Shown here one piece after another: positions 11,522 to 61,894 of a DNA stretch of 64,000 bases. The position numbers and the translations under genes were made by a program. Position 1 is the first letter of the stretch, and the number at the start of each line of letters is the position of its first letter. Origin of the DNA: Deltaproteobacteria bacterium (GTDB lineage: Bacteria > Desulfobacterota > Deferrimicrobia > Deferrimicrobiales > Deferrimicrobiaceae); NCBI GenBank assembly GCA_016234845.1, contig JACRNP010000012.1:478-64477 (forward strand), read 5' to 3'. The notes under the pieces are model-generated. The model made no database searches and was not told the DNA's origin. It was given only the letters and a program-made list of their open reading frames with translations.

Positions 11522-11554
11522 ATACGCCTCGGGTAATATGATGTAATCCACCGG

Positions 11555-12127: not shown

Positions 12128-12181
12128 CAATCCGGCCCGGTGGATGTAGTAAGGGATGCACGGTACAAGGGGGAGGGTGTT

Positions 12182-16889: not shown

Positions 16890-16896
16890 AGATTCC

Positions 16897-17514
16897 ATGG
16901 GAATGATCCGAAATACGCCTCGGACGGCCGGCACGCCGGTCGCGGTGCTCCTGCTCGTGATCGTTGCCGCTTGCGCGTCCGTGGAGCCTCGCAAGCCCGC
17001 TCCCTCCCTGGAAGGAAGGATCCAGGGACAGCTGATACCGCAGGATAATTCGATCCGGCTCGGCGGCGTGGAAATCCGGGCCGCTGGGAAAACCACGGCT
17101 ACCGATGAGGAAGGGCGGTTCGCCTTCGACACGCTGCCCCAGGGGAAGATCTCGATCGTCGCCGAAAAAAGAGCCGGCCGGGAAGATGCCGGCAGAATGA
17201 TGGGAATCACTGTTGTTTATATCGGGGAAAATCCCGTCCAGTTCAAGGTGCCGTTCAGGGACGCGGCGTTCTTGGACCGGTTCTGCGAGGATTGCCACCC
17301 TTACCGGCCGAAACAACCCATCCGGCAGGGGCAGGTCATACGGGATGTGCATGTTTCGGGGATCGTACCGAATAAGGCGACGAAATGGCCGGAAAGCCTC
17401 GATTCGAAGGGGCGGGTCACCTGTGAAAGTTGCCATACGCTCCACGAGACCACCAAGTTCGGGAAATTCCTGGTCGACCTGAAATCGGGTCCGCTGTGCA
17501 AGAAATGCCACTGA
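16897..17514 (+). CDS. Triheme c-type cytochrome lipoprotein
   Basis: The ATG is 8 nt after the previous stop. The lipoprotein signal is MGMIRNTPRTAGTPVAVLLLVIVAAC. A CarbopepD_reg-like N-terminal domain is followed by CEDCH, CESCH and a C-terminal CKKCH. Confidence 0.75.
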   Translation: MGMIRNTPRTAGTPVAVLLLVIVAACASVEPRKPAPSLEGRIQGQLIPQDNSIRLGGVEIRAAGKTTATDEEGRFAFDTLPQGKISIVAEKRAGREDAGRMMGITVVYIGENPVQFKVPFRDAAFLDRFCEDCHPYRPKQPIRQGQVIRDVHVSGIVPNKATKWPESLDSKGRVTCESCHTLHETTKFGKFLVDLKSGPLCKKCH

Positions 17515-17529
17515 GGATGCTCGGAAAGT

Positions 17530-17548
17530 AACGAATTTTTCGTTTTTC
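17530..17548 (+). terminator. Candidate weak intrinsic terminator or regulatory hairpin between the triheme lipoprotein and the giant cytochrome gene
   Basis: AACGAA-ttt-TTCGTT (a 6-bp stem at 17530-17535 and 17539-17544) is followed by TTTT. It sits in an unusually AT-rich 100-bp spacer that also carries a GTATTCGTATTC direct repeat. The stem is weak, with only 2 GC pairs. Confidence 0.3.
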
Positions 17549-17614
17549 CGTATTCGTATTCATTGGCGGTCGGTTCGCGAGCGGTGGACTGCCCAACGTA
17601 CACGGGAGGGATCG

Positions 17615-23600: not shown

Positions 23601-24943
23601 TGGGCGATGCCGCGAACAACAAGGGGTTCGACTGCACGCTGTGCCACTACAACTACACGCACAACGAGTCGGGCCTCGCGAAGGGGCAGGCGTGGCCGGC
23701 CGCGTATTTCGACAACGTGAACGTGAACTTCGACCCGTCGTGGAACCCGGGGAGCACGACGTATCGCGGCCTCGCGGTGCCGACCACCGGGAACGGCGGG
23801 ACGGGAGCCTGCGCGGGGCTGTACTGTCACGGCGGAAACGCGACCCTGAACCCGGGCTGGGCCGGTTCGTCGACCTCGCCGGCGTGGAACGGGACGCTGG
23901 CGTGCGGTACGTGCCACGACACGGGGATCGCGGACACCACCCCGGGGACGCTCTTCTCGACGAAGAACCACCCGGTGCACATCGACAACGTGGGCAAGCC
24001 GTATGGCCCGGAGACGTGGCGGTTCAGCGTCGGGACGAACTGCTCGGAGGGTACCGGCTGCCACACGCGGTACGACCTGACTCCGGGCGGCCTGCACGTG
24101 AACAACGCGAAGGATCTTCGTTCGACGCCTTCGGACAACGGGTACGTCGCGGCGACGCTCGCCACGACGCAGGTGTGCCGGAACTGCCACAGCACGTACA
24201 CGTCGGTGAGCATCCCGGTTTCCGGCGATGCGCAGGTGCGGACGCAGGCGAACTGGGACAATCCGGGGTATTTCGTGGATTGCCTCACCTGCCACAACGG
24301 GACGGCCGCCGGGACCCAGGCCACCGCGCGCATCGACGGGAGCGGCGGCGTGGCGGCGGCCATCGAGGGAACGATTTCCACCATGGGGCACGGAACCGCC
24401 GGGATCGGGTGCGGCTGGTGCCACGGCGACATCGGGCATCTGGGCGCCAACCGTCCGGTGAACTCGAACCCGTACCGGCTGACCGGGTACTTCTTCACCG
24501 GGACATACCCTCCGATCACAACGCTGGGGGGGATCGACTACATCTGCAACTACTGCCACGCGATGTTCGGGCCGCCGGACCACACCTGGCGCGTTTCGGG
24601 GAGCGGGGCGTACGGTCCGGAAGCCAAGGGGGCGGCGGATACGCACCCGACCACCGTCCTCGGAGTCGGAACGGACAAGGACCGGTGGTACCAGTTGCCC
24701 TCCAGCCCGCACATACCGCTGTACGGGGACCTGATGGACAACAACTACAACCGGTCGGGCGGGACGAACAACTATGTGCTGTGCGTCTCGTGCCACGATC
24801 CGCACGGCGTCGGCGCATCCGCGGTTCCCTCGTCGGTTCGCAGGTTCTCCGGCCAGAACACCGATCCGAAGGGGACCAAGGCGCTCCGGTTCAACTATTC
24901 GGTCGGTGCGCCCACCGCGCTCTGCTCGCAGTGCCACAAGTAG
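17615..24943 (+). CDS. Giant multihaem c-type cytochrome (2442 aa, about 55 haem-binding motifs) built from repeated CX3-5CH...CXXCH units
   Basis: The RBS is GGGAGGG and the signal peptide is METGKRQTVALIGGFLMFAVLITAFPGG. The non-canonical motif C-x-[NT]-x-[YR]-C-H is repeated about 8 times (CTNVYCH, CSNLRCH, CSNLYCH, CTATYCH, CAGLYCH, CSNINCH, CNSAACH, CDNPNCH). Each is followed 25-40 aa later by a CXXCH. There are many further CXXCH and CX3CH motifs (CTSICH, CSSNCH, CLQTCH). Confidence 0.9.
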   Translation: METGKRQTVALIGGFLMFAVLITAFPGGMGMNEARAAHSDYMGGAQGCDACHNLAYTAVDPTPYTSYILNSKLMEIKGLNAGTTPDLMPCTFCHSYTTAARRQFMTNWNVMKEERSQFTGTEGYNDPKRHHPVDRSYDLDDPVRRNVNLYPYEVNNITMSPWLGSDPYRSWTKPASQMACTDCHDVSLYTAAYPDHPALWNADNTPITSSSRYNNPFMLRNVTSWTWSGAPSQPTGNAPDSFCLQTCHNSTFGPATKMGHYGWGAYGLNGNVLREPGGTPLKKSSCVDCHEVHFSGNTTPGLMGEGRSSNNTIDDQNCTSICHDDTNWIASGHKKGLAANYTCSSNCHTTAVSHREAANPLRLSGGEDAIKSDLSTNVASDNADNDYNGLADDAGESAFRRSRSSNCNNCHQEHGYHKGKIVSATDKSAACTDCHDPHGKGVFNGTDNNAYMIRATVIGKNTVYRGKTDFYTVAGTGVCDNPNCHGKPLGPKGTAGTIMEDVAEHRTNVTVTFNSDCTICHSHSGPGPQTSFAPNCNGCHDYAGQPHKAGAHVLSPVHDKHYKTFADNGYEFSCSSCHMDNIHNESIVSVPTQWGDPSHTDLMISNNVQVKFDGLNPAGTYSPAAGSRTAPAAGTCSNLRCHGATLPANAKGTNQTPSWDWNQRSTGACGTCHRVYASALKMATGAHRDHADSAAGYGFGCNTCHYETTPDGLTIPLTSARSFHIDNSSRVTFNTSDWRFTGAGAGSYTGTTTIGDAGGTCTNVYCHSKASAKTNPYGGLVVTPGWDNTTALACSACHDAPPAYTSGTPKANTHAKHSTAPAAFGCQVCHWRTTQDGTSVPQSGKASHVNGEWDAVSEGDVAANPGATAKQLSHNFAYDNSLKTCNSAACHGGWLVGNPNVPAWGGGTIGCQTCHSNSAGVAVSADTDEFVWDNGVMSKVHPGEYGGLSSGAGHGRSGSAYASGRAAAGFAGPAPDATGCLYCHTTGVGHGDSTNRFRLANKGPASGVQDNGWNNVCLQCHATGGAGFNPGTGYGSKDATSTFVDDNHYGYKHTAGTMGGTFCWDCHDPHGDTNAYMTHSGDGTAPGKGVTSVSDGVFGIPTTSRPVWVGDVSAATGGGYTSADLVASTTNSVVADGTYQGLCQTCHAASGGANYYRRNLYTALTGHNGADTQLCTSCHSHNAGFSPSCNGCHGEASALSGAPPFAPFGGNRIWPSTVDNYAVLAGLGNHRSRPASGVDNSGHDPFTGATSGCVECHTNTPGGGATHNQATNVNAPMTNISNHNWYAGAAASWSRGTLDGGVAGGSVVDDSCSNINCHSPYYGTPANQYKSGTPAPYTRYWLNMTLWDCYTCHAYDGRTATSRPAGADNTISTGMHSRHVGTLQYACSRCHDVTGYSAASLTGNHKNGFVNWSFAGSLNPYGSTPSYSVATGSAAPTDDNAAAGHRSWGSCSNLYCHSIGQKATGAVLTGAAGEYLVPAWDNVLSGQCGSCHRSDGVQGTATWMDSAGHNKHLSLPYRNYYTCSTCHNGLGSGASSHVDNQVNLAFGTTLNGTTIGATYNQGNTHPVGNGLGTCTATYCHGTGTPALTGGANQAGVPNVPAWGTASTALCGSCHGGYGGAVNYPGKASNYPTSGAHARHMNDLSGPMISACYDCHASTHADGKVDFRTRYDNTTATTFALTQTCDPCHGTGVATAKANWNTVGLVDCLTCHGSTAAYTNANATGRVAPNVGGDNSTYGANVRGHNRPTASGVYPVTSNPAANRTCEHCHNLSIAHIDGTDNTTYAGNRLWDNVNGVSGISTVSGMCAACHTTSGSSPATKKGINTHGNAGYPGRLEAVFTALSCNQCHEPHGMVNVSAAPAGLNLWMINPTITVATGVTSSPVRLFAKSGANSFDSTGTASDICRVCHANTSNPGYPMAYNVGGQHAAPGYAGNETGKDCSSCHSHNQDGAIGTVDGLMPLECNGCHSYPGLDNTGANLKQMSVGHWKHVGQPLPVGDAANNKGFDCTLCHYNYTHNESGLAKGQAWPAAYFDNVNVNFDPSWNPGSTTYRGLAVPTTGNGGTGACAGLYCHGGNATLNPGWAGSSTSPAWNGTLACGTCHDTGIADTTPGTLFSTKNHPVHIDNVGKPYGPETWRFSVGTNCSEGTGCHTRYDLTPGGLHVNNAKDLRSTPSDNGYVAATLATTQVCRNCHSTYTSVSIPVSGDAQVRTQANWDNPGYFVDCLTCHNGTAAGTQATARIDGSGGVAAAIEGTISTMGHGTAGIGCGWCHGDIGHLGANRPVNSNPYRLTGYFFTGTYPPITTLGGIDYICNYCHAMFGPPDHTWRVSGSGAYGPEAKGAADTHPTTVLGVGTDKDRWYQLPSSPHIPLYGDLMDNNYNRSGGTNNYVLCVSCHDPHGVGASAVPSSVRRFSGQNTDPKGTKALRFNYSVGAPTALCSQCHK

Positions 24944-24967
24944 GACGGGACCCAGGGAGGTTCGAAG

Positions 24968-25231
24968 ATGGACAAGCGTGATCGTTACCGGGCGGCACTT
25001 CTCGTCCCGGTTCTCCTGGCGGCACTTGCCGGACCGGCGTGGGCGGCGACGCCCGGGGCCAAGGCAAGCCACCATCCAGGGCAGGACTGCTCCGGGTGCC
25101 ACAAGATCCGTGGAAAGTCGACGGGGGGGACGCCCGCGAAATCCTCTCCCGCGACGCCTGCCAAGGGGACTGCGCCGGCGGCGACTCCATCCGGCGCTAC
25201 TCCTGCGAAGGGAGCCCCCCAACCTCGATGA
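24968..25231 (+). CDS. Small secreted monoheme c-type cytochrome with a Pro/Ala/Thr/Lys-rich tail (87 aa)
   Basis: The RBS GGGAGG lies before the ATG. The signal peptide is MDKRDRYRAALLVPVLLAALAGPAWA. It has a single CSGCH motif. The tail is TPAKSSPATPAKGTAPAATPSGATPAKGAPQPR. Confidence 0.6.
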   Translation: MDKRDRYRAALLVPVLLAALAGPAWAATPGAKASHHPGQDCSGCHKIRGKSTGGTPAKSSPATPAKGTAPAATPSGATPAKGAPQPR

Positions 25232-26202
25232 TGGGCGGTTGCCACAGCGTTGCCGCCAGGGGAGCGGCCTGGGCACGAGGGATGGCGGCGGCCATCTCCC
25301 TCCGGATCCTGCTGCTGCCGTTCACCGCGGGAGCCGCGGACGTGCGGGTCGTAACCACCGCGGACGGACTTCCGTCGAACTGGGTGACGGCGCTTGCGCC
25401 GGAGCCGGGGGGGAAACTGTGGGTGGGGACCGGAAACGCCGGGGTATACCTGTTCGAGCCGGCCACGGGGAAAGGGAAAGGGTACCGTGTCGCCGACGGG
25501 CTTTCTTCCGACGAGACCACATCCATCGCCCTCTTCCGGGGGAAAGTGTACGTCGGTACCGCCGCCGGACTCTCCGTGTTCGACGGCTCCAAATGGGAGT
25601 CCATCACCAGGATCGAAAACGTGACCTTGCGGAATGTCCGGCTCGCCGCCTCGCCCGGCGGGAAGGAGTTGTGGGCCTGCTCCGTCTACCTCGCCGGGGG
25701 GACGGTCCGTTTCGATGGTACGAACTGGAAATTCATGGGGGGGAAGGGGCGCGGCCTGTTCAACGATATCGAATCCTTCGCGTTTCCGCCGACGGGCGTG
25801 GTGATGGCGGGCGGATCGGGAATCCCTTACCTGTACGCGGGGGACGAAGTGAAGGTCATCGGCGAGGGCCTGCCTCCGATGAGCCTGTTCGCCGTCGCGG
25901 AGAAGGAAGAGGCGCTTCTGCTCGGCTCGAGCCGGGGGATGTACCGATTCGACGGGAATAAGTGGAAAGAGATGCCGCTGCCGCCCGCGCTCGCCGGATC
26001 GTCGGTTTTTTCGATCGCGGTGCAGGGTGGAAGGGTGATTGCCGGCTCCGACAGGGGAATCGTCCTCGTTGTGGATGGATCAGCGCGTTTTTTAAGCCGG
26101 AACGAGGGCCTGCCGGCCGACCGGGTCACCGCGGTCGCAATCCTGGACGGCAGGGTCGCGGCGGGAACCGCCCGGGGACTTGCGTTGATCTCGAACTGGT
26201 GA
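25228..26202 (+). CDS. Secreted beta-propeller protein (two-component-regulator propeller / Reg_prop-like repeats)
   Basis: The ATG at 25228 overlaps the upstream stop; an alternative ATG at 25282 gives the signal MAAAISLRILLLPFTAGAA. Repeats include TTADGLPSNWVTALAPEPGGKLWVGTGNAGVYLFEP and GLSSDETTSIALFRGKVYVGTAAGLSVFDG. Confidence 0.6.
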   Translation: MMGGCHSVAARGAAWARGMAAAISLRILLLPFTAGAADVRVVTTADGLPSNWVTALAPEPGGKLWVGTGNAGVYLFEPATGKGKGYRVADGLSSDETTSIALFRGKVYVGTAAGLSVFDGSKWESITRIENVTLRNVRLAASPGGKELWACSVYLAGGTVRFDGTNWKFMGGKGRGLFNDIESFAFPPTGVVMAGGSGIPYLYAGDEVKVIGEGLPPMSLFAVAEKEEALLLGSSRGMYRFDGNKWKEMPLPPALAGSSVFSIAVQGGRVIAGSDRGIVLVVDGSARFLSRNEGLPADRVTAVAILDGRVAAGTARGLALISNW

Positions 26203-26227
26203 GCGGGAAGAAACAAAGGGTCCGGTT

Positions 26228-29200
26228 ATGCGTAATATCAATAGAAACGGGAAGATGCGTCTTCGGGGGAGGACATTGCTGATGGGCGATCGGGCCAGAT
26301 TCCGACCGGTGCATTTCATCCTGCTCCTGCTTCTGTTCCTGGTTTTCCTTGGCTGGCCGCCGGGAGCGGACGCTGCCCACGATCTTTCCCAGGATTGCTA
26401 TAACTGCCACAACATCCAGACCGGCCAGGTCTGGGCCGGATCGTACTCGATCTGGTCCGGCAAGGCGATCGGCATGTCGCCGTATTCGCGACCCGTCACC
26501 TGCGACATCTGCCACTCCGACTACGGCAACCGGTTCAAGTCGACCAGCGAATCGCACCACCCGGTTCCGACCATCGGAGTCGGCGCGATGGTGAACGATT
26601 ACGACAACGGCGTCCGGATCGATTGCCGGGACTGCCACAACGGGAATTCCGTAACCACCCTGACGCCCAACCTCATCCCCGATCTCGCCCCGACCGACTA
26701 CCTGAGCACGGCGGGGAACACCGCGACGGACGGGTATCCCAACCACGACGTCCTCTTTCCGAACAACCAGGTCGTCCCGGGGGACAACGCGCACCTGCTG
26801 TCGATGCTCCTCTCCGCCGGGCAGCGCACCGTTTCCGGCTCTTCCGTCTACAACAAGGTCCCCTCCGCGAACCCCGCGACCGACTACGCTTTCTGCTTCG
26901 CATGCCACGACGGCAGCGCGAACACCGCCCGCGCGGTCAACGTCCGCCAGGACTACATCGACAAGGGGCACTACTTCAAGTCGACCGGCGGGGGGATCAC
27001 CGCGGGGGACCGGATCCCGTGCTCGGACTGCCACGCGAGCCACAACAGCGCGACCAACGCCCGCCTCTTCGAGCCCGACAACACCACCTGGACGGGTGCC
27101 CGACCTTCCGGCTTGACGTTCGCCTCTCCGTACGCGCCCACCAACGCGGAGTACCGGGCGGTCTGCATCTTCTGCCACGAGGATTACAATTCCACGGATT
27201 CGGTGACCACGACCAAGCGGGTCAGAAACGTCGCTCCCGCCCCGCGGAAGTGGGGGGTCACAGGACACGCGGCGTCCGATACGCAGTCGTGCAAGCAGTG
27301 CCACAATCCGCACAAGACCCCGGGCGGCGGTCCGGACTGCCTCACCTGCCACACCGCCGGCGGCGCGGCGGGGGCCGTCTACGATTACATCGACGCACTG
27401 TTCAAGGGGGTCGGTTCCGACAACACCGCGACCCAACCGGCATCCGTCGGTTCGCTCACCTGGAGCCAGCACGGCGGATTCGTGTCCGCGGGCGGCGCCG
27501 CGCGGTTCATATACACGTCGCCCTACAACACGAAAGCGGTAAACGACTGCTTCAAGTGCCACGGCGACCGCCACAACAACACGTATTCCCTGATCGACGC
27601 GGACGGCGCCGATTCCTACGCGTACAGCGCCTCGCTGGGGATGCGGGACAACACGGCCTCCGGAATCGCCAACGCGAACGCCTTCTGCCTCACGTGCCAC
27701 GACGGGAACGGCGCATCCGCGGACGTCCAGATCGGGAACGTGGCCCCTCCGAACGTCGCGGCGAACTATGCCGGCGGAGGCCACGGCCGTCCCCAGGCGT
27801 CGGGCGCCTACACCGTTTCCCAGAACAACCCGGCGAACCTGAAGTGCACCGACTGCCACGAGGTGCACGGCTCCAACCACGCGAAACTGCTGCCGGCGAA
27901 GAAAAACGAGGTCACGGCGAACTTCACGATCCCCTCTAACTTCCCCGAGAAGACGTTCCGCAGCGGCGGGAGCACATTGCTCGCCCGCGACGTCGACTTC
28001 ACCGACTACTCCAGCCCCGCTTCCGGGAACGGTTTCGGCACGACCGGGGATCCGGGAGACCAGCGCGCTCCCGCCGGGGCGACCACCGGCTTCTGCGACG
28101 CATGCCACCGGTTCGCCGGCCGCGCCAACCGCGGCACCGACAACGTGACGGGCAAGACGCACACCCACGAGGGGATCGTCGGTGATCTCAACCAGTCGTC
28201 GCCGTCCCAGATGACGTTCACGAAGGATTGCCTCGAGTGTCACGACACGCACGGCACGACGAACCTCGAAATGGTCCGCACGACGATCAACGGGGTCACG
28301 CCGGTGACGTTCACCTCGCGCACGGGGGCGAACTCCTTCGACCCGGTCGAGGGCGGCAGCACGGCGAACGCGAACTCGGTGTGCACCGCGTGCCACCAGA
28401 ATCCGACCGAGAACCCCGCCCTCAACGTGGACCACAACTTCCGCAGCTCCACCGTGAACCCGGACCACAACGAGGACACGAACTGCACGGCGTGCCACCC
28501 CCACGGGACCGCCGCCGACGCGAAGAAGTTCGGCTTCCCGCAGGCGGCGTGCAACTCGTGCCACGGGACGGTTTCCGACACCGCGGGGATGCCCGCATCC
28601 GGGGACACCGGGACGTACCACACCGACGCCAACAACGTGATCGGCACCCGGGCCGGGGACAACACGGCCCACAAGATCCACGTGAACTACCTGGTGAACA
28701 AGCGCGGCGTGGCGCGGAGCTCCTCCTGCTACGTCTGCCACGCCGGGGGCGGTTCCGGCGAGTCGGGCGGACACCCGGGGAACCCCACGAACAAGAATTT
28801 CAAGAGCGGCACGCAACCTTCCGCGGTTCCGTACCTCCAGGTCGCGCTCGACAACACGGGCGCGGTCTGGAACACATGGAACGGCGCCGGGTCGGGCCCG
28901 ACGTACAGCGGCACCCCCGGCCAGGCGGCGGACAATACGAACGGCTGGAAGACGTGCTCCAACACGAAGTGCCATTACGCCCTGTCGCCGTCCTGGTCCG
29001 GAAAACAGCAGATCACGGCCCTGCCGGGCGTGATGACCGTGTCGACTCCCGACGCGCTCCCCGCCGCTGGAAACGTCCTCCAGGGTTCTACCAACAACGT
29101 GATCGACAAGATCCGCCTCCAGACCGATGCCTCGGGTACGGTCATCGACAACCAGTTCAAGGTGCGCATGGGCGTCGGGGCGACGGCGGTGTACGGGACC

Positions 29201-30505
29201 GACATCGCCCGGATCACCTTCTGGGAAGACGCGGACCTGAGCGGAACCGTGAACGGGGGTGACATCCAGATCGGCGGAGACGCGGTTTTCTCGGGGACCG
29301 ACAACGGCTACACGGTTGCGCCGGTCTCCTACTCCGTACCCGCGAGCACCACGAAACAGGTGCTGGTCGTGGTCGACATCGGCGCGGCCGCGGTCAACGG
29401 ACGCACCATGGCGTTCTCCACGGTAAACGGCGAGCTCAAGGCGTCGTACGGCACGATCAACGCGTGGACGACGTTCACCTCGAACACTTTCACCGTCGCC
29501 GCGCCGGGCACCCTCACCGTATCCACGCCCGACGCCTTACCGGCGGCCGGCCCCGTGATGGTGGGTTCTGGGAACAACGTGGTGGACAAGATCAACCTCG
29601 TTGCGAGCGGCGGGTTCTCGACCGTCACGGGCCTCAAGGTGAAGCAGCTGGGCACTGCGGTGAACTCGACCGACATCTCGGCCGTCACCTTCTGGCGGGA
29701 CGTGAACTCGAACGGGACGCTGGAAACCGGCACCGATACGCTTCTCGGAGGCGCGGCCACCTTCAGCGGGGCGGATAATACTTACTCGGTGTCTGGGTTG
29801 TCGCTGACGGTTTCTTCCGGGGCGACGGAGCGGATTCTCGTGGTCGACAACGTGGCGGCGGGAGCCACCACCACGCGGACGATCCAGACCCAGGTGGTCG
29901 ACGCCTCCTACGTGACCCTGTCCGCGGGGACGGTGGCGGGGACCTTCCCGATTACGGCGTCCACGGTACAGACGATCAGCAGCGGAGGGCAGCTCACGGT
30001 GACCACGCCCGACGCGCTTCCCGCGGCCGGGGACATCCGCGGCGCCTCGGACAACAACGTGGTGGACAGGATCACCCTCACCGCGGCTACGGCGAACGTG
30101 ACGGTGAGCGGACTCTGGGTGAAGGAGCTGGGTACCTCGGCGGACGGATCCGACATCTCCGCCGTGTCCTTCGTGGACAACACCGCCGGAGCGGGCACCC
30201 TGCTGGGCACGGCGACGTTCAACGCCGCCGACAACACCTACCGCCTGACGGGGCTGGGTCTCACCGTGGTGGTCGGGACGCCCCGGACGATCGTCGTGAT
30301 GGCGAACATCGCGAACGGAGCAACCGCGGCGAGGACCGTGCAGACCCAGGTGAACGACGGGTACGTCCAGGTTTCGACGGGAACGGTAAACGCCATCACC
30401 TCGTTCAGCTCGACGATCCAGACGATCCGGGCGCTCACCGGCAGACGATCCGGGCGCTCACCGGTCTGGTTATCACGGACACCGCGGGTTCGACGACGCC
30501 GGTGA
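26228..30505 (+). CDS. Giant multihaem c-type cytochrome, N-terminal part (1425 aa, about 18 haem motifs, then three tandem Ig-like repeats); the frame is broken near the 3' end by a 23-bp tandem duplication
   Basis: The signal peptide is MRLRGRTLLMGDRARFRPVHFILLLLLFLVFLGWPPGADA. Haem motifs include CYNCH, CDICH, CRDCH, CFACH, CSDCH, CIFCH, CKQCH, CLTCH, CFKCH, CTDCH, CDACH, CLECH, CTACH, CNSCH, CYVCH and CSNTKCH. Three roughly 160-aa repeats occupy aa 930-1400. The last 20 aa (RRSGRSPVWLSRTPRVRRRR) are out-of-frame translation after the duplication at 30419..30464. Confidence 0.8.
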   Translation: MRNINRNGKMRLRGRTLLMGDRARFRPVHFILLLLLFLVFLGWPPGADAAHDLSQDCYNCHNIQTGQVWAGSYSIWSGKAIGMSPYSRPVTCDICHSDYGNRFKSTSESHHPVPTIGVGAMVNDYDNGVRIDCRDCHNGNSVTTLTPNLIPDLAPTDYLSTAGNTATDGYPNHDVLFPNNQVVPGDNAHLLSMLLSAGQRTVSGSSVYNKVPSANPATDYAFCFACHDGSANTARAVNVRQDYIDKGHYFKSTGGGITAGDRIPCSDCHASHNSATNARLFEPDNTTWTGARPSGLTFASPYAPTNAEYRAVCIFCHEDYNSTDSVTTTKRVRNVAPAPRKWGVTGHAASDTQSCKQCHNPHKTPGGGPDCLTCHTAGGAAGAVYDYIDALFKGVGSDNTATQPASVGSLTWSQHGGFVSAGGAARFIYTSPYNTKAVNDCFKCHGDRHNNTYSLIDADGADSYAYSASLGMRDNTASGIANANAFCLTCHDGNGASADVQIGNVAPPNVAANYAGGGHGRPQASGAYTVSQNNPANLKCTDCHEVHGSNHAKLLPAKKNEVTANFTIPSNFPEKTFRSGGSTLLARDVDFTDYSSPASGNGFGTTGDPGDQRAPAGATTGFCDACHRFAGRANRGTDNVTGKTHTHEGIVGDLNQSSPSQMTFTKDCLECHDTHGTTNLEMVRTTINGVTPVTFTSRTGANSFDPVEGGSTANANSVCTACHQNPTENPALNVDHNFRSSTVNPDHNEDTNCTACHPHGTAADAKKFGFPQAACNSCHGTVSDTAGMPASGDTGTYHTDANNVIGTRAGDNTAHKIHVNYLVNKRGVARSSSCYVCHAGGGSGESGGHPGNPTNKNFKSGTQPSAVPYLQVALDNTGAVWNTWNGAGSGPTYSGTPGQAADNTNGWKTCSNTKCHYALSPSWSGKQQITALPGVMTVSTPDALPAAGNVLQGSTNNVIDKIRLQTDASGTVIDNQFKVRMGVGATAVYGTDIARITFWEDADLSGTVNGGDIQIGGDAVFSGTDNGYTVAPVSYSVPASTTKQVLVVVDIGAAAVNGRTMAFSTVNGELKASYGTINAWTTFTSNTFTVAAPGTLTVSTPDALPAAGPVMVGSGNNVVDKINLVASGGFSTVTGLKVKQLGTAVNSTDISAVTFWRDVNSNGTLETGTDTLLGGAATFSGADNTYSVSGLSLTVSSGATERILVVDNVAAGATTTRTIQTQVVDASYVTLSAGTVAGTFPITASTVQTISSGGQLTVTTPDALPAAGDIRGASDNNVVDRITLTAATANVTVSGLWVKELGTSADGSDISAVSFVDNTAGAGTLLGTATFNAADNTYRLTGLGLTVVVGTPRTIVVMANIANGATAARTVQTQVNDGYVQVSTGTVNAITSFSSTIQTIRALTGRRSGRSPVWLSRTPRVRRRR
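29020..30440 (+). repeat. Three tandem coding repeats of about 480 bp (about 160 aa each) encoding Ig-like/beta-sandwich modules inside the giant cytochrome
   Basis: The protein repeats begin LTVSTPDALPAAG[NPD]V..G[SA].NNV[IV]D[KR]I.L and end ...TFW.D...GT...G.D...GG.A.FSG.DN.Y.V..L.L.V. The DNA copies start near 29027, 29503 and 29989. My by-eye estimate of DNA identity is about 70%. Confidence 0.7.
30419..30464 (+). repeat. Perfect 23-bp tandem duplication (CAGACGATCCGGGCGCTCACCGG x2) that frameshifts the giant cytochrome gene
   Basis: Copy 1 is 30419-30441 and copy 2 is 30442-30464, and the two are identical. Because 23 = 3x7+2, the upstream frame hits a stop at 30503-30505. Removing one copy joins ...IQTIRALTG directly to LVITDTAGSTTPVTTTSLSASGTHQFY..., which is the frame of ORF 30502..35829. 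Confidence 0.85.
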
Positions 30506-33500
30506 CGACGACGAGCCTGAGCGCGAGCGGTACGCACCAGTTCTACTCCACCGCGACGTATTCGAGCGCCGCGTTGAACCAGAACGTGACCACCGGTTCC
30601 GCCTGGTCGCGCGCCGGCACCGCGACGGGGAGCACCGTCGGCGCCGCGACCGGCTTCTACACCGCGGGATCGACGGCGGGGACCGACAACGTGACGGCCA
30701 CCTACCGGGGGCAAACCGATAACACCACGGTGGACGTGACCACCGCCGCCGCGCGCACGTATTTCCTGTTCAGGCCGGGTGTCCAGACGAGCGTAGGCGC
30801 GGACGGCCAGATGCACAACGGTTGGACGAGCGCGACCACGTTTTCCCCGGCGCCCGGGAATACGGGAATGGCGACCTCGGCCTATTCGCCGACGCCAAAC
30901 GGGTGGAACACGGCCGTCAACCTGAGGATCAATTCGACGGGAACCACGACGTACCTTCTGATGCGTGCGTATACGATGGCGAACTACGCATCCGCCAACA
31001 CGATTCCGGCGCAGACCGTGAGCGGGCAGATCGGCCTTCGGAACGGGACCGGAAACGCGACCGCGTACCTGGCCCTCTACGATTACAATCCCGCCGGCGC
31101 CGCCGGGAACGGAACGCAGATCGGAGGCAATTCCGGAACGTTGAGCGTCACGGCAACCCAAACCAACTTCACTTGGTCGATCACGATCCCGTCCTCCTAC
31201 GTGATTCCGGTCGGCCATCGGCTCCAGCTCCGGCTCTATTACACCGCGTCCGTCTCCGCGCAGAGCAACCGCGCATACATAGGGTCCACCACGGTCGGAA
31301 CGAACAGCGGTTCGTTCACGATCACGGAGACCTCCACCGAAAACCTCGCTCCGCCCCGCACCACCGGCGGCGGCACCGCCATCGCCTGCAACACCTGCCA
31401 CCAGTTCGGGCCGGATGACGCGACGGCGGGATACAAGGACAGCAGCCAGTACTACTACGCCCTCCCCGGTTCGCACGCCAAGCACGGCGTTTCCCTGACC
31501 GCGGGGACCGATCCTGTGGCGGACAACGCGATCGACACCTGCACGATCTGCCACCTGGCCGGGACCGGCGCGTTCGGCTCGGACCACATGGACGGAACCG
31601 TCGATCTGCGTTCCGGGTCGATCGGCACACGGACCGCCGGTCCGGCGTACGCCGACGACGGGACGTACGCCGGCGCCTCCCGGACCTGCTCGAATGTGTA
31701 TTGCCACGCGGGACGTTCGACTCCGCAGGCCACCGGCCAATCGTGGGGATACGGAACGTCCACGTGCGGGGTCTGCCACGCGGTGACGCCCCCCTTCGGA
31801 AAGCACGCGCTCCACAACAACGGGAACGTGAACACTACGCCGTCGGACACCTCCACGGCGGGGAATTACAACTTCTCGTGCTACTACTGCCACCCCTCCG
31901 GCGCGGAGCATGTGAATTACCCGGTATCCGCGGTACAGGCGGCGCAGGTCTCCTTCTCCGGGACGCTCGGAGCGCAGACCCTGAGCGGCACCTATACCGC
32001 CGGCGGCACGACGGCCGGCTGGGACAACGTGGCGAGCCAGGGGCTCTCCTGGACGAACGGTTCCTGCGCCGTTTACTGCCACACGAACGGCCAGGGCGGG
32101 GCCGCCCTGGTCACTCCGACATGGAACCATTCGGGGTTCCCGACCGCGACGTGCGTCGGGTGCCACGACACGAGAGGCGCTGCGACGTCGCTGTCGACCC
32201 GCCACCGGAAGCACACAGACGACACCGCGACCACGGGGTACAACTTCTCCTGCGACGAATGCCACGCGACGACGGTGGCAAACGATTCGTGGACGACGTT
32301 ACACGCGACGACGGGCCGCCCCAACCACGTGGACGGCAACCCGACGGTGCAGTTCAGCACGACGCTTCGGGCGACAACGCTCGCCATTTCCGGGACGTTT
32401 ACACAGGGAGTCGACAGCTGCGCGAACACGTACTGCCACAGCGACGGGTCGAGCATCAAGAACGGCGGAACGATCCAGGCGAACTCGATCCGGTGGGACA
32501 ACACCACGACCCCGCTTCCGTGCAACTCGTGCCACGGCGCCGGCGGTCCGGTCTCCGGAGCCCCGAACTACACGACGTCCGGCAGCCGCAGGAACAGCCA
32601 TGCGGCGCACGCGTCGGTGACGTGCCAGACGTGCCACAGCCAGACGACGACGACCGGAAACACGATCACGACCGCGGCCAACCACGTGAACGGTACGTAC
32701 CAGGTGAACGGAACGGGATTCACGTACGCCTTCAACGCCACGACCGGATCCACGTGCGCCTTCACGTCGGGCTGCCACAGCGGCACGGTGACGTGGGGGA
32801 CGCCGCTGACCGGCGGATGCTTCGCCTGCCACACCGGCGCGGAAGTCGCGAACAAGCCGCTGGAGGCCGTGGACGGCGTGCCGAACCCCGTGGACAACAC
32901 ACAGTACAACGGCAACGGCCACGGGAACTCGACCGCCTTCACCTGGGACAGCATCGCCGGCCCGGCGTTCCTCTACAGCTATACCGGTACCCCGAACAGC
33001 GGCTGCTACGAGTGCCACAGCAGCGCGGCGAGCCATGTTCCGAAGAGCGCGGCGGACCCGTACCGGCTGGGCGCGTGGGCTTCGAACGTCGACGGCCTCT
33101 GCAACGACTGCCACGGTCCGTCGGCGACGAATCCGAACAAGGCGTTGAGCGCGCCGAACCTCGGAATCCTCGGTCACAACAAGGTGAACACGGGGTCGGC
33201 CAGGACGTGGCCGGGATCGTATGACTACAAGTGCGTCGATTGCCACGATCCTCACGGCGACGGCAACTACTTCATGGTTCGATCCGCCGTGAACAACCCG
33301 GTAAACTCCACCGACACGAACGCGGGGAGCAATTCCTTCGGCACGCCGAAAGACAACGCTCTCTCGAACGTCACGTTCACGAGCCTCGCCGGCTTCGCGG
33401 CGAACAGCTACGCCGTTTCAGGGACGGCGGACGGTATCTGCGAGGTGTGCCACAACCAGACCACCCTTTTCAACGCCAGCGGCTCCGACAACACCGGCAC

Positions 33501-35829
33501 CCACGCGTCCCGCACCGGCCGCTGCACCTCCTGCCACAAGCACGATACCGGCTTCAAGGGATCGGGAGATTGCGAGGCGTGCCACAACAACGCCCAGGGG
33601 CCGAGGCGCGCGATCACGGCGGAATTCGGATACGCGTCGCACCACAGCCAGGGCGTCACGGCGGCCACGGTGACCAAGGTCACCTGCTCCCAGTGTCACA
33701 TGGAAGCGAACGCGGACGGCTCGATGAGCACGACGTACCACAACAACGGCGCCTCTTCGCCGTACCCGATCGACCTGGTCGTGTACACGACATACCCTAC
33801 GCGCGGAACGCCGGTGTCGATCACGAATCTTGCGCAGGCGGACCTTGCGCCCGCCAGCGCGCATTGCCAGTCGTGCCACAACGCGACGAACCAGGCCGCC
33901 GCGCCGTTCAGCGGGGAGGGCGACACACGCACACCGAGGGTGTATGCATGGGACGCCACGCCGGTGGGTACGAAGTACGGGGCGACGACTACCGCTCCGT
34001 TCGGGAAGGTGTCTTCCACGACATACAATGTGGTTCCGGCTGACCTGATCAACAAGGCGTACTCTCCACACGGCAATCTCGCGAACAACCACGGAGGGTA
34101 CGCCACCAGCGGGGCATGGACGGACCGTTACGCGGCGACCAGCGGGACGGCGGCGCGAACCGCGGTTACGAACGTGGCGTGCCTGGACTGCCACAATTCG
34201 CACGGGTCGGGAGTGACCGGGGGTACCTCGTACGTCAGCCCGGCGTCGAGCTACACCGCGGCGACTTCCGCCCCCGGAAACGGCGGGATACTCAAGGACA
34301 CCGCGGCGTACACCCCCGCCGCGAGCACGACCGCGGGAAACCTGTACAGCGCGCAGGCGGATCTCTGCTTCGACTGTCACCTGGGGGATGACGCCACCGC
34401 CCCGAGGAAATTCACGAGCTACCGCTCGCCCGCGCCGACACAGCCTGTGCAAGGGTACTACGACGCCAACGGTCTCACCGGGGCGACGCGCTGGGGAACC
34501 TCGCAGATTTGGACCGGCAGCTTCGCCTACAAATCCGCGGTGTTCAAGGGAGGCCACTTCGGGGCGAGCACGACCACGGCGAGCGGCACTTCCGCGCTCA
34601 TGAAATCCACTCCCGCGGGGACGATCCTTGGCCTTTGCACGAAGTGCCACGATCCGCACGGGGTGGACCCTGCCGCGGCGAACGCGGCGTACCGGGTCCC
34701 GGCGCTGAAAGGGACGTGGATGACCTCCCCGTACAAGGAGGATCGGGCGGGGGATCTGGTCGGTGCGACCATTAACGACGCGAACACATGGTCCCCCTCG
34801 AACTCGTCGCGGTTTACGGGCACGCCCAAGCCGTACAGCGCGCCGCGGCAGAATCCGAGCTTCGCCTACAATCAGCCCGCCATCGTGGGCGGCGGATTCG
34901 GAACAGGGATCAGTGCTTCCACGTGGGGGAAGGGAGGAACGGGGTACAACGGATACTTCATCGACGACAACTCCTTCGGGAACAGCAAGATCAACGACAC
35001 GACGTACCGCCCGTGGTCGACGGCGATCACCGGGACGTACGTGACCGCCGCGGTTCCCGGGCTGAACGACACCCAGTTCGCGGGGCTGTGCCTGAGCTGC
35101 CACCCGAAGACGGGAACGCTCGCCGCAGGGAGCATCGGGAGCGTACTGACCTCGACGAACGGCCCATACACGTACGACTACTCGGGCCGCGGTAACAATA
35201 CTGCCTATACTAAAACGGTGACCGGCATCAACGACACGATCACGGTCCACCGCACGGTTCTCGGGTGGGACACGATCGCCACCGCGGCGAACCTGTTCAA
35301 ATACTACATGACCCGCCAGCACGCGATGGTCTGGAACGGGGGCGGCGGGCAGGCCGTCCGGTCGATCAGCAGCTATACGACCGCTCCGGGAGCGTACCGC
35401 TGGTCGGTGAATCCCGGGACCACGACGCACGCTGCCAATTGGAACCCGTACACCGATACCGCCTACGACACCGGGAACTACACCCTGGCGGCGGGAGGCC
35501 AGCAGTCGGCCAATTACACCGACAACACGTACCACCGGTTCGTCTGCTCGAAATGCCACACGCCACATGTGGCGCGGCTTCCGCGGTTGATGAAGACGAA
35601 CTGTCTCGATGTGGGGCCCAGCGCGACGCAGGCAACCTCGATCAACAAGCACGGAAGCACTTCCACGGCGTACACCGGCACGGGGTACACTTTCGGGGCG
35701 CAGATCGCCGATACGGACTCGGCCGGATTCAGCTACATGCCGAACGAGCGCCCGATGCACTGCCACAACCAGAAAAAGTCGAACAAGACGGGCGCCGGAG
35801 GGTGGAACACGGTCACGGGGTGGCCGTAA
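30502..35829 (+). CDS. Giant multihaem c-type cytochrome, C-terminal part (1775 aa, about 26 haem motifs); it has no signal peptide of its own and is probably the downstream part of a single roughly 3190-aa protein interrupted by the 23-bp duplication
   Basis: The GTG 'start' is followed by VTTTSLSASGTHQFYSTATYSS, a Thr/Ser-rich stretch that is not a signal peptide. A 280-aa non-haem Ser/Thr/Gly-rich region comes first. Then come CNTCH, CTICH, CSNVYCH, CGVCH, CYYCH, CAVYCH, CVGCH, CDECH, CANTYCH, CNSCH, CQTCH, CAFTSGCH, CFACH, CYECH, CNDCH, CVDCH, CEVCH, CTSCH, CEACH, CSQCH, CQSCH, CLDCH, CFDCH, CTKCH, CLSCH and CSKCH. Confidence 0.8.
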   Translation: MTTTSLSASGTHQFYSTATYSSAALNQNVTTGSAWSRAGTATGSTVGAATGFYTAGSTAGTDNVTATYRGQTDNTTVDVTTAAARTYFLFRPGVQTSVGADGQMHNGWTSATTFSPAPGNTGMATSAYSPTPNGWNTAVNLRINSTGTTTYLLMRAYTMANYASANTIPAQTVSGQIGLRNGTGNATAYLALYDYNPAGAAGNGTQIGGNSGTLSVTATQTNFTWSITIPSSYVIPVGHRLQLRLYYTASVSAQSNRAYIGSTTVGTNSGSFTITETSTENLAPPRTTGGGTAIACNTCHQFGPDDATAGYKDSSQYYYALPGSHAKHGVSLTAGTDPVADNAIDTCTICHLAGTGAFGSDHMDGTVDLRSGSIGTRTAGPAYADDGTYAGASRTCSNVYCHAGRSTPQATGQSWGYGTSTCGVCHAVTPPFGKHALHNNGNVNTTPSDTSTAGNYNFSCYYCHPSGAEHVNYPVSAVQAAQVSFSGTLGAQTLSGTYTAGGTTAGWDNVASQGLSWTNGSCAVYCHTNGQGGAALVTPTWNHSGFPTATCVGCHDTRGAATSLSTRHRKHTDDTATTGYNFSCDECHATTVANDSWTTLHATTGRPNHVDGNPTVQFSTTLRATTLAISGTFTQGVDSCANTYCHSDGSSIKNGGTIQANSIRWDNTTTPLPCNSCHGAGGPVSGAPNYTTSGSRRNSHAAHASVTCQTCHSQTTTTGNTITTAANHVNGTYQVNGTGFTYAFNATTGSTCAFTSGCHSGTVTWGTPLTGGCFACHTGAEVANKPLEAVDGVPNPVDNTQYNGNGHGNSTAFTWDSIAGPAFLYSYTGTPNSGCYECHSSAASHVPKSAADPYRLGAWASNVDGLCNDCHGPSATNPNKALSAPNLGILGHNKVNTGSARTWPGSYDYKCVDCHDPHGDGNYFMVRSAVNNPVNSTDTNAGSNSFGTPKDNALSNVTFTSLAGFAANSYAVSGTADGICEVCHNQTTLFNASGSDNTGTHASRTGRCTSCHKHDTGFKGSGDCEACHNNAQGPRRAITAEFGYASHHSQGVTAATVTKVTCSQCHMEANADGSMSTTYHNNGASSPYPIDLVVYTTYPTRGTPVSITNLAQADLAPASAHCQSCHNATNQAAAPFSGEGDTRTPRVYAWDATPVGTKYGATTTAPFGKVSSTTYNVVPADLINKAYSPHGNLANNHGGYATSGAWTDRYAATSGTAARTAVTNVACLDCHNSHGSGVTGGTSYVSPASSYTAATSAPGNGGILKDTAAYTPAASTTAGNLYSAQADLCFDCHLGDDATAPRKFTSYRSPAPTQPVQGYYDANGLTGATRWGTSQIWTGSFAYKSAVFKGGHFGASTTTASGTSALMKSTPAGTILGLCTKCHDPHGVDPAAANAAYRVPALKGTWMTSPYKEDRAGDLVGATINDANTWSPSNSSRFTGTPKPYSAPRQNPSFAYNQPAIVGGGFGTGISASTWGKGGTGYNGYFIDDNSFGNSKINDTTYRPWSTAITGTYVTAAVPGLNDTQFAGLCLSCHPKTGTLAAGSIGSVLTSTNGPYTYDYSGRGNNTAYTKTVTGINDTITVHRTVLGWDTIATAANLFKYYMTRQHAMVWNGGGGQAVRSISSYTTAPGAYRWSVNPGTTTHAANWNPYTDTAYDTGNYTLAAGGQQSANYTDNTYHRFVCSKCHTPHVARLPRLMKTNCLDVGPSATQATSINKHGSTSTAYTGTGYTFGAQIADTDSAGFSYMPNERPMHCHNQKKSNKTGAGGWNTVTGWP

Positions 35830-35898: not shown

Positions 35899-38205
35899 AT
35901 GAAGAAGATCGCGGTAATCGGGATCGCATGGGTTGCCTTCCTGGCCCTGCCCGCGCTCCTTGTTCAAGGTAAGACGCTGGTCGAGGACGACTACACCAGC
36001 GTTGCGCATCCCGGGCGGGAGGCCGTCGGGGGAGAAATCACCGCCGACAACACGGGCAGGGGGTGGAAAGCCAGGGCGGAGGGGGACCACCTCCGCTACC
36101 TTGCTCCCGAGGGGACGTTGCCCGCGCGGGAGGGAACGGTGGAATTGGTGTTCCAACCTGGGTCGCTCGTCGGCCGGGGGTCGGAAGCACTATGCACGTT
36201 CGAGGGACCTGGAGGCAACGCGATCCTGACCCTCTATTTCTCGCGGGCGCGGCGTTTGGAAGGTAAAGACGTGTCCGTCCTTTGGCTCGACGCCGAGGCC
36301 GGCCGCACCAGCCCCTTCGGGGACCTGGTTTCCCTGGACCGGATGGTGGCTTCGGGGGAATCGGTAGTTCTTTCGCTGGCGTGGAGCGCGGGCGATCCGT
36401 CCTCCGGCGGATTCTTCCTGGACGGCAAGCCGCTGCGAAATTTCTACTCCATGTCTTCCGGAACTTTGCTTCGCACCGGGTCGGCCTCTTCCCTTGCCCG
36501 GTTGATCTCGGGCGTGGAGTCGGTCCGCCTGGGAACTGATGGACGGGGGAAACATCCCCTCGTGTCCAACGCGGTCCGGCGGCTGGCGGTCCATGACCGG
36601 AACCTCATGGCCTCCGGGTCGGGAAAGGGGGGAATCGACTCGGTCCGCGACGACTCATTCAAGATCGCCGGAATCTCCGGGAAACTCGTGGCGGGAGACA
36701 CGGTGACCGTCGAACTCACCGCCCCCCCGGGCGGAAAGGCATCGTTCGACATGGGAGTCGCCCTTGGAATCCCCCTTGCGGAGGCGCCTACGGCGTCCGG
36801 ATCCGGGGGCGGTTCCATCCCCCTCCTTTCCGCGTACACGGGGAGCTACGTAATCCGTCCCGGGGACGACTTCGAAAACGGGAGGATCATCGGACGGTAC
36901 GTATCCGGGGACAACGTGGCGTCGGACCCGGTCACGAGCGCGTCGACGTGGACGATCGACACAAAACCGCGCGTCACCTTCGTGATCGACAGGAAGGACC
37001 TGTCGGCGGATTCCACGAGCAAGGCGCGGATCAAGCTCGTCGCGAAAGACGCAAACGGGAGCCCGGTGAAGGGGCGTCACCTGAAGCTGACGCTGGCGAC
37101 CACCGATGAGTATACGGGTACCGTGGGCGCAGGCGATTTCGGCAAGGAGGTGGGCGCCACCGTGGAAACGCGGTGGCGGGGGGAGACCGATTCCTGGGGC
37201 GAGGTGGAGTTCGACTACAAGGCCGGGTTTGCCGCCAAGACGGTCGTCCTCACCGCGAAGGATCTCGATTCCGGCGGAGTCTCCGTCGACTACATAACGG
37301 CCTTCAAGGAAGCGTCGATCGACATCGCGTTGATGCCTCCTGCCAGTCGGGCCGCGGCCCGGCGAAGCGTACAGTACATCCTCAAGGTGGCGGCATCGCG
37401 GACGGAACTGACCGCCGACGGTCGAAGCCGGTCGGTGATCCGCGCGACCCTTCTGGACCCGAACGGGACTCCGGTGACGGGAGATCCCGTGCAGTTTACC
37501 CTTTCGAGCGCCAACGGGACGTTGCGGGCGGTCACCGGGACGAGCGATTCCTCCGGGACGGCCACGGCGGAGTATATAGCGGGCAAGAAGATCGGAATCG
37601 TGGTGGTTTCAGCGACCGCGACTTTGCGAAACGTCACCGGGAACGTGAGCATCACGCTCCTCTCGGACGCTCCGGCGAAGGTGATCCTGAAAGCGCGCCC
37701 CTCCACTCTGCCGGCGGACGGGACCAGCCGCGCCGACATCGGCGTCACGGTGACCGACATCAATGACAACCCGAACGCGAACACGAGGATCGAGTTTCGG
37801 ATCGCCAGGGGAGGCGGGAGGCTCGATTCGCCGGACCGTCTGACCGATCGCTTCGGAGATGCCGCGAACCGGTACACGGCGGGTACGACCGCGGGAGTCG
37901 CGACGATCACCGCCACGGTCCGGTCGAAGACGCCGACGGAATCGGAACTCGCGCGCGCCAGAAACGTGCTCTTCGCCCGCTATTCGGCGGACGGCGACGA
38001 GATCCGGGTGGAGAAGTGGCTGAAGAAAAAGGGCGATACGGCGGTCAAGGGCGAGCCTGTAATGCAGTACACTGTGGGGCGAAGCCGCGATGTGCAGTCT
38101 ATTACCGCCCCGTTCGACCTGCGGATCGATGAAATCCTCGTCGAATACTGGGACCGGGGGGAAATCGGGCAGACGGTGGCAACGGTCACTCCTGTCGTAA
38201 AATAG
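35899..38205 (+). CDS. Secreted cell-surface protein with bacterial Ig-like (Big_1, invasin/intimin-type) domains
   Basis: The signal peptide is MKKIAVIGIAWVAFLALPALLVQG. Big_1-like segments are LTADGRSRSVIRATLLDPNGTPVTGDPVQFTLSSANGTL...GTATAEYIAGKKIGIVVVSATA and LPADGTSRADIGVTVTDINDNPNANTRIEFRIARGGGRL. Confidence 0.65.
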   Translation: MKKIAVIGIAWVAFLALPALLVQGKTLVEDDYTSVAHPGREAVGGEITADNTGRGWKARAEGDHLRYLAPEGTLPAREGTVELVFQPGSLVGRGSEALCTFEGPGGNAILTLYFSRARRLEGKDVSVLWLDAEAGRTSPFGDLVSLDRMVASGESVVLSLAWSAGDPSSGGFFLDGKPLRNFYSMSSGTLLRTGSASSLARLISGVESVRLGTDGRGKHPLVSNAVRRLAVHDRNLMASGSGKGGIDSVRDDSFKIAGISGKLVAGDTVTVELTAPPGGKASFDMGVALGIPLAEAPTASGSGGGSIPLLSAYTGSYVIRPGDDFENGRIIGRYVSGDNVASDPVTSASTWTIDTKPRVTFVIDRKDLSADSTSKARIKLVAKDANGSPVKGRHLKLTLATTDEYTGTVGAGDFGKEVGATVETRWRGETDSWGEVEFDYKAGFAAKTVVLTAKDLDSGGVSVDYITAFKEASIDIALMPPASRAAARRSVQYILKVAASRTELTADGRSRSVIRATLLDPNGTPVTGDPVQFTLSSANGTLRAVTGTSDSSGTATAEYIAGKKIGIVVVSATATLRNVTGNVSITLLSDAPAKVILKARPSTLPADGTSRADIGVTVTDINDNPNANTRIEFRIARGGGRLDSPDRLTDRFGDAANRYTAGTTAGVATITATVRSKTPTESELARARNVLFARYSADGDEIRVEKWLKKKGDTAVKGEPVMQYTVGRSRDVQSITAPFDLRIDEILVEYWDRGEIGQTVATVTPVVK

Positions 38206-61887: not shown

Positions 61888-61894
61888 GATCGGA

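Follow-up and report, generated by a model that had tools for sequence, protein, structure and literature searches.

This locus raises a simple question: are two long open reading frames (ORFs) that follow each other in a bacterial contig two genes, or one gene that has been broken, and, in the latter case, is the break real? The DNA analysed, hereafter the window, is a stretch of 64,000 nucleotides (nt) from a Deltaproteobacteria bacterium (assembly GCA_016234845.1, contig JACRNP010000012.1, positions 478 to 64,477), and all positions below are counted from its first letter. A first reading, made without any comparison to other sequences (the sequence-only reading), had noticed that a giant multihaem cytochrome is split there into two ORFs by a short tandem duplication. 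The comparisons reported here strongly support a single gene, 26228/26282..35829, predicted to encode a Sec-exported cytochrome c of ~3,174-3,192 amino acids (aa) with 43 haem-binding motifs. The elements that make up the broken gene are the following.

26228..30505, + strand: ORF1, the N-terminal cytochrome half, which contains three beta-rich repeats of ~135 aa each besides 17 CxxCH and 1 CxxxxCH motifs.

26282..26374, + strand: predicted Sec-type signal peptide of the whole protein, MGDRARFRPVHFILLLLLFLVFLGWPPGADA/AHD, conserved in the orthologues P0001 and P0003 (see below).

30419..30441, + strand: copy 1 of the 23-bp unit CAGACGATCCGGGCGCTCACCGG, the ancestral copy, coding for ..QTIRALTG in the ORF1 frame.

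30442..30464, + strand: copy 2 of the unit, a derived insertion; its 23 additional nt (8 codons minus 1 nt) shift the frame.

30465..35829, + strand: the C-terminal cytochrome half, in the frame one base behind that of ORF1, with 22 CxxCH, 1 CxxxCH and 2 CxxxxCH motifs.

The two copies of CAGACGATCCGGGCGCTCACCGG (30419-30441 and 30442-30464) stand back to back with 0 mismatches, and Tandem Repeats Finder describes them as a repeat of period 23, with 2.0 copies, 100% matches and a score of 92. The perfect 23-bp duplication at 30419-30464 is therefore as it had first been described. An exhaustive scan of the 64-kb window for perfect tandem duplications with a period of 8-400 returned this one only; the chance expectation for perfect duplications with a period of at least 23, calculated from base composition, is ~1e-8. 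The 23-mer unit has no other occurrence in the window on either strand, and no Ns are present in it. The sequence of the copy-to-copy junction is GCTCACCGGCAGACGATCC. The 31-mer diagnostic of this junction is GGGCGCTCACCGGCAGACGATCCGGGCGCTC, and the one-copy context is ATCCAGACGATCCGGGCGCTCACCGGTCTGGTT.

The consequences for the reading frames were followed by translation. ORF1 is 1,425 aa long from the ATG at 26228 and 1,407 aa long from the ATG at 26282, the start chosen by gene callers in the orthologues and in the sister contigs introduced below. Its C-terminal end reads ...SSTIQTIRALTG (...IQTIRALTG), then RRSGRSPVWLSRTPRVRRRR, then the stop; that is, ORF1 finishes with 20 nonsense codons (30443-30502) followed by TGA (30503-30505), as the sequence-only reading had it. 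The frame lying one base behind has no stop from a point ahead of the duplication up to 35829; its translation is QTIRALTGLVITDTAGSTTPV... / QTIRALTGLVITDTAGSTTPVTTTSLSASG... ORF2, when called mechanically, starts at GTG 30502 and has 1,775 aa. Deleting one copy in silico produced a single ORF of 3,192 codons with 0 internal stops, in line with the in-frame fusion of ~3190 aa that had been announced. This fused ORF contains 43 haem motifs (39 CxxCH, 1 CxxxCH and 3 CxxxxCH), 18 before the junction and 25 after it, so that the multihaem character initially proposed was retained and the count of about 44 was corrected to 43.

Both halves matched multihaem cytochrome families, with scores well in excess of the curated cut-offs, namely Paired_CXXCH_1, Cytochrom_c3_2, Cytochrome_C7, GSu_C4xC__C2xCH and TIGR01904. 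Profile scores in bits, with the cut-off in brackets, were 70.5 (27) for TIGR01904, 38.6 (21.7) for PF09698, 64 and 48.5 (20.6) for PF09699, and 55.8 (24.8) for PF14522. Judged from these profiles, the fused product would be a c-type multihaem cytochrome of the CxxxxCH/CxxCH-domain family (TIGR01904 / PF09698, with PF09699, PF14537 and PF14522). Its N-terminal signal, recognised by a hydropathy test only, comprises a positive N-region with arginines, the hydrophobic segment FILLLLLFLVFL (best 12-mer with a Kyte-Doolittle value of 3.64) and a cleavage-type site, ADA/A.

The fused sequence was then searched against 5.8 billion proteins. Three relatives aligned with it over 99% of its length: P0001 (3,166 aa, 85% identity), encoded by the metagenome-assembled genome GCA_003598145.1 ('Deltaproteobacteria bacterium'), P0002 (2,990 aa, 63% identity) and P0003 (3,106 aa, 58% identity). 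All three proteins are uninterrupted across the junction (...QTIRALTG/A-LV/VI-.TDTAGSTTPV...). The comparison with orthologous loci suggested by the sequence-only reading was extended to DNA, using L001-L003, the loci encoding P0001-P0003, and L004, a fourth orthologue obtained by a protein scan of JGI metagenome contigs. One copy of the unit and an open frame were found in 4/4 of these loci (58-85% identity). When the 10 genes of L001 were compared to the window by tblastn, 9/10 aligned in one frame; the giant cytochrome alone changed frame, and its two tblastn segments overlapped by the 8 duplicated residues. The gene order is also conserved in the orthologous loci (2,441-aa cytochrome, ~370-386-aa gene, giant cytochrome, Big_1/invasin protein). 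Full-length orthologues, one-copy DNA in relatives and conserved gene order thus all agree with the proposal that ORF1 and ORF2 encode the two parts of a single protein. Among species-representative genomes, no relative was found by junction-spanning protein alignment and no match to the exact DNA pattern, with one or two copies, which places the lineage outside that collection. The exact DNA pattern, with one or two copies, was likewise without match in the JGI metagenome contigs.

Could the split nevertheless be functional as it is, either as two separate genes, or as one protein produced by programmed -1 ribosomal frameshifting in or after copy 2? The two frames do rejoin by a -1 shift, and the ORF1 stop overlaps the GTG of ORF2 (GTGA, 30502-30505), in a coupling-like arrangement. 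However, no slippery heptamer of the X XXY YYZ type is present in 30419-30505, and the orthologues and the sister strain are all single-frame, the split being seen in none of them. ORF2 also lacks what an independent gene would need. There are no start codons in its frame ahead of GTG 30502 and no Shine-Dalgarno-like sequence ahead of this GTG, and no promoter-like or terminator-like sites were found in 29800-31000. A signal-like segment follows 0/13 of the candidate starts located before its first haem motif, the best hydrophobic 12-mer near these starts reaching 1.22, versus 3.64 for the real signal, which upholds the initial view that the downstream ORF has no signal peptide. More generally, an export signal, or a promoter and start of its own, for 30502..35829 had been named at the outset as grounds for keeping the two ORFs apart; both were looked for, and none was found. 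In c-type cytochromes, haem is attached only after export, by the cytochrome c maturation systems, and a cytoplasmic ORF2 product would consequently be haem-free. We consider a functional split to be close to refuted, and the one-gene model to be as well founded as sequence comparison allows.

We next asked how old the break is. Contigs 99.8-99.98% identical to the window, which we call sister contigs, are present in the Logan assemblies (k=31) of five public runs (SRR12113393, -394, -396, -397 and -407). They were located by exact-protein look-ups, with the neighbouring 456-aa, 205-aa and 368-aa genes as anchors. The alignment of contig L013 (SRR12113393_8340, 15,449 nt) with positions 15782-31253 of the window shows 9 substitutions and one 23-nt gap (99.94% identical), and this sole gap is exactly the 23-nt second copy. 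The cytochrome ORF of L013 is open over 1,649 codons, to the contig end. Two more contigs, L008 and L010 (SRR12113396 and SRR12113407), were judged from the lengths of their called products, 1,414 and 1,441 aa, which reach the contig ends; being longer than 1,407 aa, these products go past the stop that a two-copy allele would impose. A k=31 graph assembly spells the one-copy context only from reads containing that context, and since a Logan contig shows it, the one-copy allele certainly exists.

The downstream half bears no trace of decay. The ratio of nonsynonymous to synonymous substitution rates (dN/dS), measured against L001, was 0.206 before the junction (1,383 codons) and 0.186 after it (1,761 codons), and all 43 haem motifs, including all 25 downstream, align with motifs in the three orthologues. 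The low downstream dN/dS and the kept motifs indicate that selection on the downstream half has not been relaxed. From these comparisons, and from the identity of the two copies, the second copy is derived and very recent, as sister populations only ~0.06% divergent keep one copy, and the two-copy state is not fixed in the population. At five sites (19369, 23587, 24004, 36963 and 46108) the window differs from every Logan contig covering them, and those contigs mutually agree. On this evidence the window belongs to the population sampled in SRR12113393 to SRR12113407, of which it represents another, slightly distinct haplotype or sample.

A domain located downstream of the junction also stands out.

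30741..31350, + strand: non-haem domain in the C-terminal half (fused residues ~1497-1700), fast-diverging, with no Pfam family.

It belongs to a non-haem region that lies between the haem-rich parts and consists of the three ~135-aa beta-rich repeats, a further beta-rich domain starting at the junction, and the fast-diverging domain itself. Pfam gave no significant family for these middle domains, and Ig-like or Big_2 labels were not applied. An AlphaFold model of the junction region, based on a 4-sequence alignment, was all-beta and placed the junction in the strand that opens its second domain; its mean pLDDT of 55.9 makes it too poor for a fold search. Identity to L001 drops to 31-58% over 30741-31350, versus 85-95% in the flanks, and P0003 has a MAM domain at the matching position. 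In the 99.9%-identical population, the k=31 contigs all break off within this segment or close to it (at ~30546, ~30629 and 31253), and others begin at 31345, despite the absence of repeated 31-mers in the window. The segment may be a hot spot for strain-level variation or module exchange.

The occurrence of one- and two-copy states in genomes only ~0.06% apart could also be expected from a reversible on/off contingency switch. The second copy would then be gained and lost at high rate, cells would alternate between the full 43-haem protein and either a truncated form with 18 haems or no product, and selection would maintain the mixed state. A precedent exists in Bordetella pertussis, where the manganese exporter BP3410 is inactivated by a 30-bp perfect tandem duplication that is lost under manganese stress, which shows that short perfect duplications can be lost precisely, restoring function (PMC8546581). 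Moreover, the cytochrome is very costly and probably extracellular, so that switching could pay, and the truncation point is close to a natural module boundary (P0004, another relative, shares only residues 15-1429). Several observations argue against such a switch. The ancestral one-copy state offers no repeat to slip on, so that the forward step would be an ordinary rare mutation. No recurrence was seen in the 4 orthologues or the 3 sister contigs, related loci are without a similar out-of-frame duplication, nothing comparable occurs in the giant cytochromes next to it in the window, and the sequences compared gave no sign of a within-sample allele mixture. Neither a standing slippage-prone tract in the basal state nor recurrent copy-number changes in relatives, the hallmarks of phase-variable loci, was found.

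The comparison with known systems leads to the same point. As for BP3410, a short perfect two-copy duplication in a coding sequence disables the product, the gene is recovered when one copy is precisely lost, and intact alleles persist, in a minority or among sister strains. The BP3410 duplication (30 bp) preserves the frame and has become fixed in most isolates, and experiments have demonstrated its loss under selection; the present one is out of frame (23 bp) and comes from a single assembly, its reality and its reversion both being putative. Slipped-strand contingency loci, for example the promoter repeats of Mycobacterium tuberculosis, are standing multi-copy tracts with recurrent polyphyletic changes and within-population mixtures of 1e-2 to 1e-3 (PMC12817950). 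The likeness to these repeats is that copy number differs among near-identical genomes and would alter expression; the difference is that the basal state is here a single copy, and that neither recurrence nor mixture was seen in the sequences compared. A switch at this locus is without positive support and seems to us very improbable. We would give as little credence to the idea, drawn by analogy with BP3410, that a toggle of this kind could provide bet-hedging for extracellular electron transfer.

Is the second copy, then, present in the organism at all? That the duplication is a real allele, strain- or sample-specific and unfixed, and would be found in the DNA, is in our judgement just on the probable side. 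Replication slippage or template switching would have produced a tandem copy of 23 bp where the third beta-rich repeat gives way to the following domain. Ribosomes starting at the usual codon would then read 20 codons out of frame and stop at 30503-30505, and the product, of ~1,400 aa and with 18 haem motifs, would be exported. The remaining 1,775 aa on the C-terminal side, which carry 25 haem motifs, would stay untranslated or, if translation re-initiated at GTG 30502, would be cytoplasmic and without haem. The fate proposed for both polypeptides follows from the dependence of c-type haem attachment on prior export. In favour of a real allele, the assembly looks clean: the 9 other syntenic genes (~29 kb) are unbroken, there are 0 Ns and no second duplication of this sort. 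The window is also its own haplotype. In addition, a de Bruijn graph assembly spells out the copy-to-copy junction only if some reads contain it. The support for a real allele over an artefact comes partly from such background on assemblers, and is weak.

A number of observations weigh on the other side. The second copy is known from the window assembly alone, without independent support. No truncated ORF1-like protein from this population was returned by the search of 5.8 billion proteins, and exact-product look-ups with ORF1, from either of its two starts, gave no match. The frame is open in 3/3 of the sister contigs spanning the site. The 23-nt periodicity extends 0 bases beyond either end of the duplication, so that flanking microhomology is absent, and no obvious slippage substrate is visible at the unit. 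Finally, joining two contigs without trimming a perfect 23-nt overlap would give the same picture.

This last remark corresponds to the main alternative, namely that the gene is intact in the organism, with a single copy of the unit, and that the extra 23 nt come either from an untrimmed contig overlap or from a copy added by polishing or gap-closing. One copy or an open frame in every independent sequence of the locus, including the three assemblies of the 99.9%-identical population, speaks for such an artefact, as do the wholly undecayed downstream half and the presence of exactly 2.0 copies with no microhomology at the ends. The length of 23 nt is also near common small k-mer sizes. Against an artefact stand the cleanness of the 64 kb (0 Ns, and no other duplication or frame break, the ~29 kb of syntenic genes included), the general requirement of standard graph assemblers for reads with the new junction, and the fact that the sister assemblies represent a different haplotype, whose one-copy state does not prove that of the window. 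A literature search on assembler-made duplications of k-mer size returned nothing usable. We regard an artefact as possible, and on the whole rather unlikely. The sequence-only reading had listed mutation, switch, population heterogeneity and artefact as origins for the duplication; the present analysis narrows the list to a very recent, unfixed change, and does not separate a real allele from an artefact.

Two other ways of producing the duplication were considered and dropped. The unit lies between the arms of a 6-bp inverted repeat, CCAGAC/GTCTGG, which could have promoted slippage through a hairpin; its fold is no better than that of shuffled sequences (z = -0.17 with one copy and -0.91 with two copies). 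A 23-bp target-site duplication left by an excised mobile element received no support, any element remnant being absent. Elsewhere in the window, an ArsP-like permease gene contains at 8830-8873 an imperfect tandem repeat whose period is also 23 bp (1.9 copies, 80% matches). Its unit is unrelated in sequence to CAGACGATCCGGGCGCTCACCGG, and the shared period is probably a coincidence.

Among known proteins, the fused product belongs with the giant CxxxxCH/CxxCH cytochromes (TIGR01904, PF09698/PF09699) of Geobacter- and Anaeromyxobacter-type bacteria, with which it shares its domain content. The nearest member of the family is P0001, 85% identical over 99% of the length and found in the same gene neighbourhood, from which the window's copy differs by its interruption and by the strong divergence of 30741-31350. 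In the Desulfuromonadia, most multihaem cytochromes do not exceed 12 motifs (PMC11492766). With 43, the present protein is unusually large and lies far out in the size distribution, and is not unique, as a neighbour in the window has 54. Multihaem cytochromes are described as evolving by modular 'grafting and pruning' (PMC9250108). Three further relatives, P0004, P0005 and P0006, have the N-terminal ~1,400-aa module in common and differ in their C-terminal modules, P0004 replacing everything after residue ~1429. The break point in the window lies close to such a module boundary. Unlike in 'grafting and pruning', the modules are here parted by a frameshift rather than by gene rearrangement, and the truncated form is without sign of being a selected architecture.

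The broken gene is part of a conserved cluster, 9187-38205, with ~120 haem motifs in 25 kb, which is possibly under the control of an extracytoplasmic function (ECF) sigma factor. The cluster starts with a PqqD-like gene and two radical-SAM/SPASM genes, ahead of the ECF sigma factor gene, and its cytochromes preceding the split one are, in order, of 1,100 aa (22 motifs), 205 aa (3 motifs, lipoprotein-like) and 2,442 aa (54 motifs). Its other located members are listed here.

11537-12127: ECF sigma factor.

12128-12985: zf-HC2 anti-sigma factor.

17615..24943, + strand: the 2,442-aa cytochrome with 54 haem motifs, upstream neighbour.

25096..26202, + strand: conserved 368-aa gene directly upstream of the split cytochrome, one of the anchors for the sister contigs.

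35899..38205, + strand: 768-aa Big_1/invasin-domain protein, conserved downstream neighbour; an exact-product look-up with it gave no match.

The cytochrome that comes first in the cluster has 2,893 aa in L002 (1-572; JGI locus), versus ~1,100 aa in L001 (1-614) and in the window (13587-16889), which is another large architecture change within the cluster. Outside the cluster, an ORF at 61880-63436 joins an AhpC/TSA-redoxin (thioredoxin-like) domain to a multihaem part with 10 CxxCH motifs (Paired_CXXCH_1, 131 bits). At the window edge, a partial ORF (1-1647) has a ResB-like match (cytochrome c biogenesis system II), and a right-handed beta-helix region comes after it.

For annotation, the outcome is that the two ORFs should be recorded as one gene, either frameshifted or corrected, and that cytochrome surveys should not halve the size and the haem count of this protein. 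If the second copy is an artefact, it points to a faulty join in the source assembly. Short tandem duplications that shift the frame are a familiar kind of lesion, and this one, in a known class of proteins, would not surprise a specialist; neither outcome alters the understanding of such proteins or of such mutations. If the allele is real, it would show a giant cytochrome lost or truncated in a natural population by an event that is dated and very young, in keeping with reports of unusually fast gain, loss and alteration of multihaem cytochromes in metal-reducing bacteria (PMC12977616).

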